Source: Mytilus edulis (taxonomy: Eukaryota). From it: a DNA stretch of 64,000 nucleotides. Below, one piece after another: positions 27,601-35,672 of this stretch. The stretch covers positions 17,050,001 through 17,114,000 of the forward strand of contig NC_092357.1 of NCBI RefSeq assembly GCF_963676685.1. The letters are read 5' to 3'. The stretch's first letter is position 1. Each line of letters starts with the position of its first letter. Position numbers and translations under genes: made by a program. The notes beneath the pieces are model-generated. The model had not been told where the DNA came from. It saw only the letters and a list, made by a program, of their open reading frames with translations, and searched no databases.

Positions 27601-28436
27601 CACAAACAACACTTTACATACCTTATAAATTACAACAAGAAGCATTAAATGCCTATACATACATGCTAAGAAATATGTTGAAACCATGATATTAATATTT
27701 ATTGTAAGCTTTTTGTTCGTTTTTCTTCTTCTATGCATTTTCCCAACGTTGAGACGAATAGCATTTACAGTCATAGCTGTTGTATTTTATGCCAAAAAAG
27801 AATATGATATTGGAGTACCTTGCAAATGTGGTCAGCCAATCAAAGGTACGGAATGAAATAAAATTATACATGTAGTATAAATATAAACAATGAACTATCA
27901 TCGTATTTTTTTAAACATACATGGTATGCAATGCTAGTATGTTACATTTGTCTACTATGCTCACAAAAGATAGTATTTGAAACAAACATACTTGACAGGG
28001 TACTAGTTTTAAGTGTAATGTTTCTCGTAAACTAAATAATCTTAACATTTTTATTTTTCTATTTTGGATTGTAATTTAGTGAATAGAACAAAACTGTTGA
28101 TTTTTACAAACATGTTTATTTAAACAGTTCCTGGTGTATGAAATATGAAAACCATGAAAGCATATATATATATACAACTCGTCTAAACATCAACCCAACA
28201 ATGTTAGATCAGTAAATTTGCTTTCGCAAATTTTCTGTTCTTCCCTCGCCGGGATTCGAACCCTTGCTACTGAGATATTGTGACACCAAATCGCCTGCAC
28301 TGTAGCCGTCCCGCTAGACCACACGACCACCTGGGCTTCATAAAAATGAAGCTTTCGTTGCCGGGTGTTACCTTTCCACGTCAGTTTTAATCTAGCGTCG
28401 TACTACAGTACATGATATATAAGGCATGAAGATGTT

Positions 28437-31400
28437 ATTCTTATTCATATTTCGCCTTCGGTCTCAAGTAATAAATTAGCTTAACTTCTCTATGAGGGGT
28501 GAAGCTTACATGTAATATCTCTGTTTAAAGAAACAAACTATAACCACATAGCTGGCCAGTGACCTTGACCCTAGTATATAAGCACCTGTTCCATAATAAC
28601 TTGTCATTATTTTTCTAGAGGGTGTGAAGTGAACACTTCACTTGAATTCTTTTTAGTTATTTTATTTTTATCTAAGATTTAGGGGAAAGTTACTAAAGAT
28701 ACATTTAACTTGTCTACGATGTACGACAAGTTCTAATGTTATTTTGTTAATTAGAAATAATAATTCCTCAATTGTCTACGATGTATGACAAGTGTTGATG
28801 GAAATGAATTTAAAAATTTCTTGTCTACGATGTATGACAAGTGTCGATGGAAATTAATTAAAATTTTTATTGTCTACGATGTATGACAATTTTATATATT
28901 CATTAAGTTTTTGCCTTAGTACGATGTACAGGCAGCACATTTGTTACTTATTTCATACTCCTGTTTGTTAAACAGGTAGATATTTAAAAGTATTTCTATT
29001 CACCTGAAGGTCGTGAGTACTCTTCAGAATTTACACGTGTTTTACCTGCACAGGTACACATTATTTTATTACAATGGCTGAATTTGATTATGCAAATGTA
29101 TTGCTTTTGCAAGATGTTTAGAATTATGTTTACACTTACAAGGGTGATGGCTATGATTTTCATCACCTCTGAGTTGTTTTAGAAATTAAAGATGATAAAT
29201 TTAATAGGAAAACAAGAGGTATTTTGAATAAATCCTCTTCTTAAACAGTTATAAAACCTAGTAGTTTTATAAAAGATCATAATGGCATTGCAGTTGGAAA
29301 TAATTGACAAAGCAACAGAACGAGTCAAAAGTAAGTTTTTAAATCTAGTGCTACTTGTATAGCTTCAAAATCTCCTTGATTTGTGAATTTTTCTCAAGAT
29401 AGTGCTGTTGAGATTTAAGATAGGCATGTATACATATTGATGCATTGACTCATTATTATTAATGTAGTAAAGAACATGTATGAATCATGAGGTTTGAGAC
29501 AGTTTCTCTGCCTTCAACTCAAGCAGAGTTTGTAGAGAAACCTGCTGCTTTATTCGAATTTTGCCATTAGAGGCTTACTTTAATGAAGATTTAGTTCTAA
29601 TTTTGATCTGAACTACTGTAATGATACTGTTCATGTACCTCCTTTTGGAGTTTGTGCCATGGCTGATGATAGTCCAGCCGGAACTGAATTTTGATATGTC
29701 TTTTGATCCTGCATTAAGGTTTTCAGAAGCCTTTAAGGCTTCTCTTAGTGAGATTAATGGTCCATTGTCTCATCCTGTTTGTTGAACAGTTTAATCATGA
29801 TTTTGCTTGGAAAATCCCTAAATTGTTTTAAAAAGGCAGAAAACTGTGTCTAAGTTTTCTTCTGGACTTTCTGTGACTGTTAATAATACTACCATGTCAG
29901 TAAATATCAAATCAGGAAAATATCAAGTTCATAGAGGAGTAATGCTATCACCCTGAGAACTGTGAGAATCCTAGTGTGTCTAGGATAAATAACAAGATTG
30001 AAATGGCACTGCCTAGACAGGCCCACTATGTGGTTTCAAAGATGCAGGAAACCCAGAGATACTTTATTAAGGGGTTGATCATCACCCCTATTGTTGAGGA
30101 TTTTATTGTAAAATTCTATTTGTTTGTTTGACCATGGGTTTCTATTTAAACGCATAGGAGATGCTCAGAAATATCTAGTTGATAAAACTTATTTGTAATT
30201 CTGATGTGATAGTTGATTTATCACGTTTTTAGCTATGATTGCATGAAGCAAACTTGGTGATTATACAAAGATTCTAAAGCAAATTCTAGATTCCTTGGAA
30301 GAGGTTCCAGGTCTAGCAATAATTTGTTTACTCCCAGCTGTTATGGGAAAGGCAATATCAGTCTTTTAACTGCGGAGGCTCTGTTGGTCAACAGGGCGTA
30401 TACTAGTAGGCAATTCCCTTCATTGAGAGGGAGAGGTTTCCCAAAAGGGAACAGAGAATCTCAGAGGGGTCACATTTCTCAACCAGTTGCTATATACAGT
30501 AGATAACTTTAAAAATATTATGATTTGGAAAATGTTACTAATGATATATTGATATTAGATTTAATAAGAAATGGTTATAAAATTATTTTTAATGATGTAC
30601 CACATATTTGAATAAAATACATTTCACCTTTCATAAGGATGAAATAATTTCAGAAGTCCAAAAATTGATAGCTAAGGGAGCTATTTAAGAGGTTGATCGA
30701 TCATTGGAAAATCAGTTTATTTCCTATATTTTCTTAGTTCCTGAGAAAGATGGGTCTTCAAGGCCTGTTACCTATTTGAAAAATTCAAACAAACTTAGCT
30801 TGTGGCTAATCAGCATTTGGAGCAGGACCATTTATCTTTTGTTTAGATGTAATTCTTAGGGATGATTATCTATATATATATATAGAGAGAGAGAGCTAAC
30901 ATCTATAGATCTCACAGATGCATATTTAAGTATCATTTTGATTATATCACAATTTCCTGATTCATGTGGAAAGGACATTGATATGATATTTATGTTCTTT
31001 GTTTTGGATTGGCTTCTGCATCAAGAGTTTTTACTAAGGTTTCAAAACCTGTCTATGTATTTTTATGAAATAATGTCACTTGAATTAAGTATATACATGC
31101 TATAGTTTATACATTGATGATTCTTTTATTATGGATCAGAATTTAGATGGTTGTATTGTGAATACAGAAGAAGTGGTGTAAATGCTTGATAAGCTGTGCT
31201 TCGGAATAAATTTTGAGAAGTTGGTACTCATTCCTTGGAAGCACATTGTTTTCCTTTGTCTCATTATTGATACTGAGCTATTTAAATTTTTTCTGACAGA
31301 TGAGAAATGGTAAAATTATCTCCCTTGGGAAATTCTTCTTAAATAGAATTGTGTAACTGTATTATAGATGATTTGCATCATATATTGGTTTTGTGTCACA

Positions 31401-33837
31401 TGCTTTTAATGCAGTATCTGTGGGAATGTTGCAGAAACATGGCGAGAAATAATGTTGAAACACTGTATAGTTGTTACAGTGTTTATTATCATCAATCTAT
31501 AGGTGAAATTTTTAACAATTTAAATCAGAAATTAAGAATTGATTTTTAGACCCATCCAAATAAGTTTTTGGATTGGACCAGATGCCTCATTAGAAGGATT
31601 TGGGATCCAAATTTGAAGAAAATTTTTCTGTTGGTAGATGGAGCTTAAGAACATGGGCTCATTTCATATAGATTTCTTAGAATTGTTGGCTATATTTTTC
31701 TTTTGGAGAGAAGTTTTTAGTCACAGAGAGTTATACAATCAGAAAATACAATTTCAGTAGCATTTATTATGCAATAGGAGGTATAACCTCTTTGTCATTT
31801 TTAAAACATGCTTACTACAAATATTCATTATTTGGGCTTGGTGTTCAAGAAAGAACATTTTTATCATAGCTCTTTATATTCCTGGTAAGAAAATTTTGAT
31901 GCTTATCATATGTCTAAAAAATTTACAGATTCAACAGGATGGCAATTGAAAGAAGATATATTTGTTTTGTTGTTATCACGTTTTCATTTTCAAATCTGTA
32001 GATAATTGATTAGTTGTCTTTTGACCAACAAGCTCCTTTCAGAGATGTTTGTACTTTTCATGGTCAGATTTAAGACCTTATATTTTCCCATCTTTTTCAT
32101 TGTTGGGGATAATTATAAAGGAAATTATTAGTGATAAAGTTCAGAAGGCTCTTTTGATTATTCCTTTTGGTCTGCTCAGAGTTGGTTTTCTTTGCTAATA
32201 CCAATTTTAATTTATTTGACAGTTAAAAGTTCTGCTAAACATAAAAGTTAGTAACAATGTTACATACCTGAAGAATGCCTTTCCGTCAGGAAGAGATTTG
32301 ATTTAACTGTGTATTCACTATTGTAAAAAATATAAGTGAACCAACACCTGAAGGGTTGATTGTGCGGTAGGGTAAAAACGTGTGTATTATATTCAGAAAT
32401 CACTTTAATATAAACAGGAGATTTCAGAATCATTTGTAAAATATATTTACACTTAATCTTGGAGATCATTCATCTATGATCAAGCATTATCAATATTTTT
32501 TGAGAAATTTATTATTTGGTGTGTTCAAAGAGAACCAATTCCTTATCACCATCTAAAAAAGGATGTTATTGATTATTGTAAATTTTTTGTAAAACACAAG
32601 CTTTTCATATTCAGCATGTTTAATGTGAATTTTACTTGTTTTATGTTGAAACAGACTTGATCCTTTAAGAAGTAGATGTTACTAAATTTGTTGGTTTACT
32701 ACATGCATATGTGAAAGGTTGCTTAAGCCTGAATCTGCAATTGAAGAGTTAGATACTCTTTCACTGTGGAGATGAATTTAGTGCTATCTTTTTAAGTTCT
32801 TTATATTCATTAGAGGATTTTACATTGAAGACTGTCTTTTATACTTGTGTCTTTATTTGCCTTGACTAAAACTGCCAAAGTACAATCTTTATCAGCTGTA
32901 GATTTATTCTATGTTTTTCATTCAGAGACATGGCACTTTATTTTTTCATATACATGAGTTTTTGAAAAATACTAGATCTGTTAGTTAGTCTACCTATTAA
33001 TGAGGTGATCAAGGGTTTTGATAAACCAAAACTTTGTGTTGTTAGACAATGATTTATCATGTTTTGTGTACAAAATATGTGAGAGAATTCATCTAAGTCT
33101 TTTCGTAAAGTTTAGATAGTTAGAGAGAGTTCTAATTTTAGCTGAGGTTTTAATGTTTACTCATTTAGAGGAACTTCTTCATAAGTGCATTTAGCTTCAG
33201 GATGTTCTATTAAAGACATTATGGCAACAGCTTAGTCTGGACATATGATAAAACTTTTTATAAGTTCTATAAAAGGGAAAGTGAATAATATCAGTACTAA
33301 AACACTTTTCTTCAGTTGTAGTTACTGGATGATCTTGTGATTTCTATGCTTTATTAAATGTTGGCATTTATAAAAATTGTTTTTAGTTTGTGTCTACACT
33401 TTAAACAAGCTAATTTATTACTTGAGACCGAAGGCGAAATATGAATAAGAATGTTCCTTCATCCAAGCATATCTTGGATGTGCAGGATGAAGGTCATTCT
33501 TAGAATATGAGCCTGAGGCTCGAAAGTAATTAATTCCCACCCTATGGATTATCAGTCTGAGACCCACCCTTTTTCCAATGGGTTTTATATTTGGTGGACA
33601 CAAACTTGCTTTAAATTATGACAAGTTATTATGGAACAGGTGCTTATATACTAGGGTCAAGGTCACTGGCCAGCTATGTGGTTATAGTTTGTTTCTTTAA
33701 ACAGAGATATTACATGTAAGCTTCACCCCTCATAGAGAAGTTAAGCTAATTTATTACTTTCGAGCCTCAGGCTCATATTCTAAGAATGACCTTCATCCTG
33801 CACATCCAAGATATGCTTGGATGAAGGAACATTCTTA
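28437..33837 (+). mobile_element. DIRS1-type tyrosine-recombinase retrotransposon, full length, coding-defective
   Basis: Left ITR 28437-28607; right ITR 33618-33759 is the exact reverse complement of 28476-28607; right extension to 33837; ICR about 33408-33531 is complementary to both ends. Decayed motifs: RT FLVPEKDGSSRPV, DLTDAY, FGLASASRVFTK, YIDD; RNase H DASLEGFG, LELLAI, IPGK; MT-like PYIFP..W.AQSWF; YR SFRGTSS and DIMATA..KTF.KFY. Confidence 0.93.
28710..28934 (+). repeat. Array of five TACGATGTA-loop hairpins in the DIRS leader
   Basis: TTGTCTACGATGTAYGACAA at 28710, 28772, 28821 and 28870; variant TGCCT-TA-GTACGATGTAC-AGGCA at 28912. Confidence 0.85.
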
Positions 33838-34076
33838 CAGATCAGCTAAATTATCTATAGTAAAGGATCATACAAATTAATGTAAGATACAGTCACAGAA
33901 AATAATTATATTTATAAGTACGTCTGATCCAGTGACAACTCTACAGCAGATTTATCCGTCGGATCACCAGCAGTGATGGTGATACATGGCTGTGTACATT
34001 ATGTATATACAACTATTCTAAACATCAACCCAACAATGTTAGATCAGTAAATTTGCTTTCGCAAATTTTTTGTTCT

Positions 34077-34171
34077 TCCCTCGCCGGGATTCGAACCCAT
34101 GCTACTGAGATATCGTGACACCAAATTGACTGCACTGTAGCCGTCCCGCTAGACCACACGACCACCTGGGC
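34077..34171 (-). other. tRNA-derived (Leu/Ser-like, long variable arm) Pol III head; not a functional tRNA; other copies at 28242-28336 and about 34518-34612
   Basis: A and B boxes are present but the acceptor stem does not pair. Confidence 0.6.
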
Positions 34172-34726
34172 TTCATAAAAATGAAGCTTTCGGTGGCCGG
34201 GTGTTACCTTTCCACGTCAGTTTTAATCTAGCGTCGTACTACAGTACATGATATTCAAGGCATGAAGATGTTATTCTTACAGATCAGCTAAATTATCTAT
34301 AGTAAAGGATCCTACAAATTAATGTAAGATACAGTCACAGAAAATAATTATATTTAAAAGTACGTCTGAGCCAGTGACAACTCTACAAAAGATTTATCCA
34401 TCGGATCACTAGCAGTGATGGTGATACATGGATGTGTACATTATGTATATACAACTCGTCTAAACATCAACCCGACAATGTTAGATCTGTAAATTTGCTT
34501 TCGCAAATTTTTGTTCTTCCTTCGCTGGGATTCGAACCCATGCTACTGAGATATCGTGACACCAAATCGCCTGCATTGTAGCCGTCCCGCTAGACCACAC
34601 GACCACCTGGGCTTCATAAAAATGAAGCTTTCGGTGGCCGGATGTTACCTTTCCACGTCAGTTTTAATCTATCGTCGTACTACAGTACATGATATATAAG
34701 GCATGAAGATGTTATTCTTATATATC

Positions 34727-34729
<3 letters not shown>

Positions 34730-34770
<41 letters not shown>
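34730..34770. repeat. (TA)n microsatellite
   Basis: Read directly from the sequence. Confidence 0.95.
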
Positions 34771-34772
<2 letters not shown>

Positions 34773-35129
34773 AACGAGATTAAACTCCAAACTGTTTAAA
34801 TAACTGAAATGATTTATTGCAACTATTATTAGCATCAAACATGTACTACATCATTCCCAAATATTCTATATTGGGTTCAATGCATTCAATGTATTGAAAT
34901 CAAAACTCAAATTTATCCTTAATACCATTCAATATGAATGGCTATAAATTAAATTTCTTTCAACAGCAAGGGCTGCGTGTGGTTATACTTACTAATGCAA
35001 TTAAAATGGTTCTTTCAGCAGGTGGGCTGATGATTGTTCATACCATTTGATTCCGTCAAATACTGCCGATTTCATCAAATGATATGAACCTGAAATGATG
35101 CTTTGTGTTTAACTACTGCACAAGTCGGG

Positions 35130-35672
35130 TTTTTACCGCACCATATATCGTGCCTGTTCCAAGTCAACCTTACCACACATTGTGACTGCTCTAAGTAGGA
35201 TTTCAACCGCACAATATGCTGTGCCTGTTCCAAAATCAACTTTAAACGACCACATGGCGCGTCTGTTCTGAATCAGTTTTCAACTGGACCACAGATTGTG
35301 CCTGTTCATTTATAGCACAACATGTTGGGCCTGTTCCAAGGCGGATTTTGACTGCACCACTTGTTTGGTATTTTCCAAGTCAGATTTCAACCACACGACA
35401 TGTTGTGCCTATTCCAAATCGGGCTATAATCGCATCACATGTTGTGCCTGTTCAAAACCGGATTTTAACCACTCTGCATGTTGTGTCTGTTCCAAGTGTT
35501 TTTTTAGCCGGACCACATGTTGTGCCTGTTCTTAATCGGTATTTAATCACACATGTTTTGCCTGCCTCAAGTCGGTTTTGAATCGCAAAACATGTTGTGC
35601 CTTTTCAAAATCGGGCTTTAATCGCACCACATATTGTGCAGGTTCCAATCTGGACTTTGACCATACCACATT
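35130..35672 (+). repeat. Degenerate ~39-bp minisatellite, about 14 units
   Basis: Consensus approximately accacatgttgtgcctgttccaagtcagattttaaccgc. Confidence 0.85.

Follow-up and report, generated by a model that had tools for sequence, protein, structure and literature searches.

The means by which DIRS elements select their RNA, and the role of their "Gag", are raised here by a DIRS1-type retrotransposon copy on the plus strand of a 64,000-nt stretch of Mytilus edulis DNA (NC_092357.1, positions 17,050,001 to 17,114,000; hereafter the window, numbered from its first base). The copy, at 28437..33833, is 5.4 kb long, non-autonomous and fully decayed, with every ORF broken and a longest stop-free piece of 81 amino acids, yet its family is still spreading. 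A Pfam search of 11 stop-free window pieces gave no matches, and an RT search with one stop-free piece returned 117, about 90 of them close and with open frames of at most 145 amino acids, and a few more distant ones that carry long frames. Copies of the family are dispersed, with distinct flanks, ATT ends and several young sub-lineages; because copies with differing flanks and young sub-lineages coexist with uniformly broken ORFs, the family probably moves in trans. The window copy is inserted in a dispersed repeat (28165-28458 and 33831-34734), with further tandem copies just to the right, and a 39-bp tandem array of about nine diverged copies occupies 35122-35671.

The overall layout is that given for DIRS1-like elements in the available text of PMC3266345, PMC9210276, and PMC7192593, with ITRs, an ICR, a right extension, and ATT termini, and, in intact relatives, three ORFs including a LAP2alpha-like ORF1. 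The left terminus and left ITR span 28437..28612, the right ITR and right extension 33613..33833, and the ITR pair proper (28466-28612 and 33613-33759) is 99% complementary. The ICR (33407..33535) complements both element ends, the left through 33407-33452 and the right through 33446-33535. A TATA-like box lies at 28575, and an Inr-like motif at ~28604-28608 would place the transcription start nearby. Counted from this putative start, the hairpin array described below would lie ~100-330 nt into the transcript, upstream of the start codon of the broken ORF1 (29074..29076), at which the leader ends. Outside the array, the leader holds a first hairpin (28624..28641) whose loop differs among relatives, a 7-bp hairpin with a GTT triloop (28960..28976) that is common to the intact relatives and whose 3' arm overlaps a splice-donor-like motif, and a conserved hairpin (29004..29027) that is also kept in L247, a DIRS element from a metagenome. 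Strong triloop hairpins with unrelated loops are further present in the ICR and right extension (33456-33493 and ~33510-33522, as well as the right ends of L081 and L090), where they possibly represent structure at the circle junction that is read by the recombinase.

The array consists of five plus-strand units, each built around a 9-nt top (28715, 28777, 28826, 28875, and 28920); the rest of the window has a single further occurrence of this top, on the minus strand. Unit 1 (28710..28729) comprises 5 bp, a bulged C, 3 bp, and a GAT triloop; units 2 (28772..28791), 3 (28821..28840), and 4 (28870..28889) have a bulged T instead and form a 49-bp tandem repeat; and unit 5 (28912..28934) is relaxed in the window family, its current form deriving from recent insertions. 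The general unit is thus a 20-nt bulged hairpin of 5 bp, a one-base pyrimidine bulge on the 3' side, 3 bp, and a G-N-N triloop. A preliminary description of this DNA had reported five tops with an invariant loop at spacings of 62, 49, 49, and 45 nt, carried on paired arms; the tops, spacings, and arms are as described, while the loop is invariant in this family alone and the 3' bulge present in every unit had been missed. Searches of the array region with Rfam covariance models yielded an unrelated best match (E 0.18), and none in a second search.

The array recurs in other mobile copies. Among 60 family copies picked by their RT, and not by the array, the array was seen in 59; 56 show three or four units within the fetched stretch, in two others four units lie past an insertion, one further copy also shows its array, and the unit number per copy varies from three to five. 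On a tree of 56 copies (the window plus 55 of the 60 fetched; L144, L160, L193, L197, and L198 have large insertions or partial cover and were omitted), parsimony places internal-branch changes at 2 of 80 sites in hairpins 1-4 but at 21 of 121 spacer sites (Fisher p = 0.0011). On the same tree, 681 of 4177 body sites and 3 of 129 ICR sites change, and hairpins 1-4 are as constrained as the ICR. Terminal branches, which include unsampled mobile history, give the same order more weakly, with 0.175 changes per site in the hairpins against 0.298 in the spacers.

The CpG dinucleotides in the loops behave in the same manner. Units 1-4 have suffered one deamination loss at their loop CpGs, compared with ~14 expected at the body rate, and the array as a whole retains 7 CpGs (4.2 expected) as opposed to 17 of 106 expected across 28935-33406. 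Where the intact relatives L081 and L083 share a CpG, the window still has it at 3 of 30 body positions, at 4 of 4 aligned loop positions, and at 0 of 2 aligned bulge positions, the lost bulge-position CpGs sitting 7 nt from retained loop CpGs; the "bulge CpG" class of the branch analysis, into which misaligned hairpin-5 columns were mixed, was not used. Other leader CpGs show six losses, near the body rate. Loop CpGs had been singled out as surviving, and they do survive, though CpGs of the ITR and the ICR and two other leader CpGs are kept too. All this bears on the reading that the array is a neutral, recent tandem duplication whose CpGs were spared by a local lack of methylation. The tandem repetition of units 2-4 and the variable unit number are what such a duplication would produce, but within this very repeat the spacers change at about seven times the rate of the units, CpGs elsewhere in the leader disappear near the body rate, and the unit is kept between elements that are 71% identical, as well as in L247. 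As neighboring bulge and leader CpGs are lost where loop CpGs are kept, a local lack of methylation is unlikely, the counts being small, and neutrality is the least credible of all the readings considered here.

Covariation, which had been offered as the ground for selection on structure, proves thin. Among 28 distinct units of the clade, one of eight pairs has changed on both sides (in 4 rows, probably through a single event). The sequence of the stem is thus under constraint in its own right, in the manner of a DNA site. The covariation read from the lower stem of hairpin 5 (TGCCT/AGGCA), formerly taken for compensatory change, is mostly an artifact of recent indels: its 3' arm has the window form in 4 of 60 leaders, unit 5 is deleted in 11 (L160, L168, L178, L183, L193, and L198, 6 of 66 leaders, were left out of this survey), and the hairpin is derived through a 5' insertion common to the family together with the rare 3' arm form. 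The older form lacks the 5' insertion and shows one change only, from U-A to C-G. Two copies, L201 (C8) and L202 (C14), carry unrelated insertions at hairpin 5 whose positions are just a few bases apart, one of ~0.9 kb and one of 8.1 kb with 26-bp terminal inverted repeats. As for the hairpins proposed in the spacers, the second is intact in 48 of 55 copies and the first in only 25 of 55, and the spacers evolve at the neutral rate.

Intact or nearly intact relatives of the window element (L081-L084; 71-78% DNA identity) bear the array as well, with four units each in L081, L082, and L084 and five in L083. Their loops read GAG, GTT, GTA, GAA, or GAT, a variety that indicates a G-W-N consensus in which the ATG of the window loops is incidental. 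In the last unit of these relatives a U-A pair is replaced by C-G, and this is the two-sided change counted above. The unit sequence is nearly invariant throughout this clade, including L247, whose ORF1 is 51% identical to that of L081 and whose leader is otherwise poorly alignable. L247 was picked from metagenomes by the exact unit pattern, so its sequence match is by construction (the other 65 of 66 loci in that scan are dissimilar to L081); in its leader two units are exact and a third has its bulge shifted, and two additional hairpins have GTT loops.

Analogous arrays occur in distant families. Dozens of DIRS1-type families in this genome have long open frames, and of 150 scored DIRS-like matches to an RT query, 40 were fetched; among 44 intact-type elements, leaders were undefinable for several (L106, L117, L120, L122, and L132). 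Local folding (span 40, p ≥ 0.5) was applied to 28 leaders, one or two per family, with the G-first loop rule fixed on the window clade before other families were scored. G-first triloops number five in the window (including the 28960 hairpin), five in L081, and four in L083, and, in the distant families, two in L103, four in L119, and three each in L131 and L135. Shuffled leaders average 0.02-0.10 (0.02-0.07 for the four distant families) and never reach the real count. The triloops of L103, L119, L131, and L135 conform to Y-G-W-N-R and sit at the same place in the leader on unrelated stems. L086 (four) and L087 (two) have G-A(A/C)T-C triloops, in which a G-C pair closes an A(A/C)T loop. In the remaining 19 leaders taken together there is one G-first triloop, seven of these array-free leaders being 175-225 nt long with none and the rest shorter; hence the array is not general to DIRS. 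Y-G-W-N-R triloops are concentrated at ~12/kb in six leaders (21 in 1.76 kb) against ~0.45/kb in the ORF regions of seven elements (18 in 29 kb, five of which come from a window-family copy nested in L135). That nested copy, at L135:5771-5982 (the same place as L163), lies inside an element of another DIRS family. A quick RT tree has one 22-row clade (support 96) made up of three subclades, and the arrays belong to two of these. In the ORFs of eight intact elements, CpG observed/expected is 0.32-0.50, compared with 0.83 in the window flanks, which suggests that these elements are methylated.

Stems are unrelated between families, save for a position-matched first hairpin with differing pairs, and within the L119 family one pair is seen as C-G, U.G, and U-A. 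These between-family analogues are stronger evidence than covariation within the family. Together with the constraint in the mobile lineage and the presence of the array in intact partners, they support the earlier proposal of selection on a cis-acting structure in a trans-mobilized DIRS element, even though its original ground mostly fell away. We conclude that the array is a real, selected cis element. Since the constraint persists without any encoded protein, it must work in cis, at the level of transcription, of RNA fate, or of copying.

Whether the element is read as DNA or as RNA is a separate matter. A signal at the DNA level could consist of palindromic factor sites past the start, or of cDNA hairpins for the recombinase, a methylase domain, or the RT. 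Such a signal would account for the near invariance of the unit in its clade (L247, found by exact pattern, included), and DIRS cDNA is single-stranded according to the accessible portion of PMC7192593. Single units, with 5-7 bp, the 3' bulged pyrimidine, 3 bp, and the triloop, reach -4 to -9 kcal/mol as RNA, but their energies are nearly equal on both strands, and they fold about as well as DNA. Duplex factor sites, however, are hard to reconcile with distant families that share loop and pairing but not stem sequence, which makes a folded single strand the likelier substrate. The asymmetric bulge and the U.G state fit RNA, as does a strand test on 24 hairpins, in which 19 interior G.T pairs stand against 4 A.C (p = 0.053 given composition), an excess that weakly favors the plus strand. 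There is also no constant loop adenine on either strand for a methylase to modify. We therefore regard a DNA-level signal as unlikely. G-A-N-T-C resembles the CcrM/HinfI site; a reading of the loops as methylase sites does not extend to the G-loop families. A Pfam scan of L081 ORF2, the place expected for a methyltransferase domain, returned RVT_1 alone.

What might read the hairpins can be approached through the proteins of the intact relatives. The ORFs of L081 are intact, with matches to RVT_1 (E 8e-20) and, below cut-off, to a SAM-like integrase domain (E 4e-4). ORF1 appears from its sequences to have an acidic, disordered N-terminal part, a conserved core, and a basic tail. The core belongs to a family of 9190 representatives (E ≤ 0.001) and has a confidently predicted fold (pLDDT 94), whose best match is the LAP2alpha dimerization domain (Z 8.7, rmsd 3.6 over 148 aligned residues; Foldseek E 0.007), as was to be expected from the consulted part of PMC4495291. 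No CCHC knuckle was found in 20 ORF1s or 150 homologues, no retroviral capsid stands among the fold-search matches listed for the core, Pfam gave nothing above cut-off for 16 ORF1s, the best PDB sequence match of the core has E 0.24, and ORF1 scans of prokaryote and viral contigs produced no loci. DIRS ORF1 is called Gag by position only in the sections available of PMC4495291 and PMC6681497. In the last 110 amino acids, all seven array-bearing ORF1s examined contain 5-12 RG dipeptides, as opposed to 0-3 in 11 others. Triloop-free L101 (5) and L102 (7) nevertheless have RG tails, as do 84 of 150 homologues. As both features follow the quick tree, the association amounts to about two independent contrasts, and the link between array and RG tail is suggestive.

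We give about an even chance to the array being a cis-acting RNA selection signal, putatively multivalent and mediated by ORF1 that intact relatives supply in trans. Transcription would start at the inner edge of the left ITR, and the units would fold co-transcriptionally as local hairpins; ORF1 dimers, through their LAP2alpha-like core and RG-rich tail, might then bind several loops at once, and the bound ORF1 would bring the RNA into a particle in which the RT copies it. In the text available of PMC7192593, the DIRS-1 RT acts in trans and protein occupancy of the transcript 5' end is presumed, both in keeping with such selection. The 246-nt array region is more stable than 200 of 200 shuffles (z -2.96), and under local folding four of the five tops form at p ≥ 0.5. 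However, the global minimum-energy structure pairs arms from different units, and the centroid fold retains hairpins 4 and 5 and one spacer hairpin only. This inter-unit pairing, the lack of a knuckle in ORF1, and the RG tails without triloops count against ORF1-mediated selection. Loop-loop dimerization, another role once suggested for the array, finds no support.

Retroviral Psi signals are clusters of small hairpins with an exposed loop G, as in SL1-4 of HIV-1 and the GACG hairpins of MLV. The array resembles them in being kept in trans-mobilized defective copies and, in common also with the 5' cis region of Ty1 (mini-Ty1, in the part of PMC7192593 consulted), in forming a hairpin cluster that follows the 5' repeat and precedes the first ORF. 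Unlike Psi, it is built of triloops on a repeated 20-nt unit, and it accompanies an ORF1 with neither a zinc knuckle nor a listed capsid match, whose particle is putative. The array would most likely work like a packaging-type RNA signal outside the knuckle-read Psi class. A bolder version of ORF1-mediated selection, which we hold tentatively and think somewhat doubtful, is that one DIRS clade uses a family-specific triloop code (G-W-N or A-(A/C)-T) read by a knuckle-less ORF1 of LAP2alpha fold, which dead families exploit in trans. If true, tyrosine-recombinase retrotransposons would have their first defined RNA-selection signal, and the ancestor of the mammalian LAP2alpha domain an RNA-related job.

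The reader could instead be a host RNA-binding protein that acts on export, stability, protection from RNAi, or germ-line localization. A host protein explains constraint in a protein-dead lineage equally well, and a single constant reader would account for similar G-W-N loops in families whose ORF1 cores are only 23-28% identical. The localization signal of the I factor, one of the Egl-BicD stem-loops treated in the accessible text of PMC13186709, is a precedent, being likewise a retrotransposon RNA stem-loop with a bulge in the 3' strand. Those signals consist of a pair of A-form helices, each at least 6 bp long, on either side of the 3' bulge and tolerate loop variation, whereas the present units are arrayed, have an upper stem of 3 bp and overall shorter stems, and conserve precisely the loop. 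Sister families with a G-A(A/C)T-C loop, or with none, moreover fit element-specific readers. On balance a host reader is rather improbable.

The pol protein, rather than ORF1, might also dock on the hairpins for template selection or priming. In hepadnavirus epsilon and the MS2 operator, the loop and bulge of a bulged hairpin are read by an element-encoded protein. The array unit shares this bulged anatomy, epsilon in particular being a parallel for RT docking, but has no sequence or Rfam match to either. According to PMC7192593, again in its available text, the RT acts in trans on a construct that lacks ORF1, and the primer and trans-acting requirements of DIRS are left unknown, which would leave room for an RT-binding signal. 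A priming template, by contrast, would be single and fixed in position, whereas copies carry three to five units of which the fifth is dispensable, and such docking is to our minds quite improbable.

The array offers a reason why a fully decayed element still spreads. With a 20-nt unit under measurable selection, seven families that vary naturally in loop and stem, and intact partner proteins encoded in the same genome, the choice of RNA by DIRS comes within reach of direct binding and swap assays. The array is apparently an undescribed feature of one DIRS clade. The preliminary description knew of no such array in DIRS, and full-text literature searches likewise returned no DIRS leader hairpin arrays or packaging signals. 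In published accounts of DIRS1-like elements, as far as their available text goes, the non-coding parts described are the ITR, the ICR, and the extensions only; the word "hairpin" is absent from the available text of PMC3266345 and PMC9210276 and appears once in that of PMC7192593, for a 3'-end hairpin.

Translation control, through uORFs or a structured leader, had been among the functions first envisaged. Each window loop does contain an ATG, several with a stop soon after. The four units of intact L081, on the other hand, hold no ATG, and the constraint persists in a family with all its ORFs broken, so that this role, as a sole function, is already largely refuted and we judge it very improbable; the uORF reading was rejected for want of any ATG in those four units. 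Four raw RNA runs supplied 216 reads (103, 36, 46, and 31) without any splice joint, and contigs of the runs X1 and X5, whose RNA nature is a guess, cover the array unspliced into ORF1. A candidate mini-intron lies at 28976-29053; its donor-like motif is set in the arm of a hairpin, and its acceptor-like motif follows 78 nt later, immediately ahead of ORF1. The donor-like motif is kept in 56 of 59 copies and the acceptor-like motif in 55 of 59, and none of the 59 is a spliced copy lacking the candidate; the upstream donor-like motif of L081 and L083 is absent from the window family and L247. The contigs also show dense T>C differences, for the most part limited to the left ITR, at L081:1822-1916 (31 places in X5, 28 in X1). 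Should these runs indeed be RNA, such a pattern would be consistent with A-to-I editing, within double-stranded RNA, of the strand complementary to the ITR.
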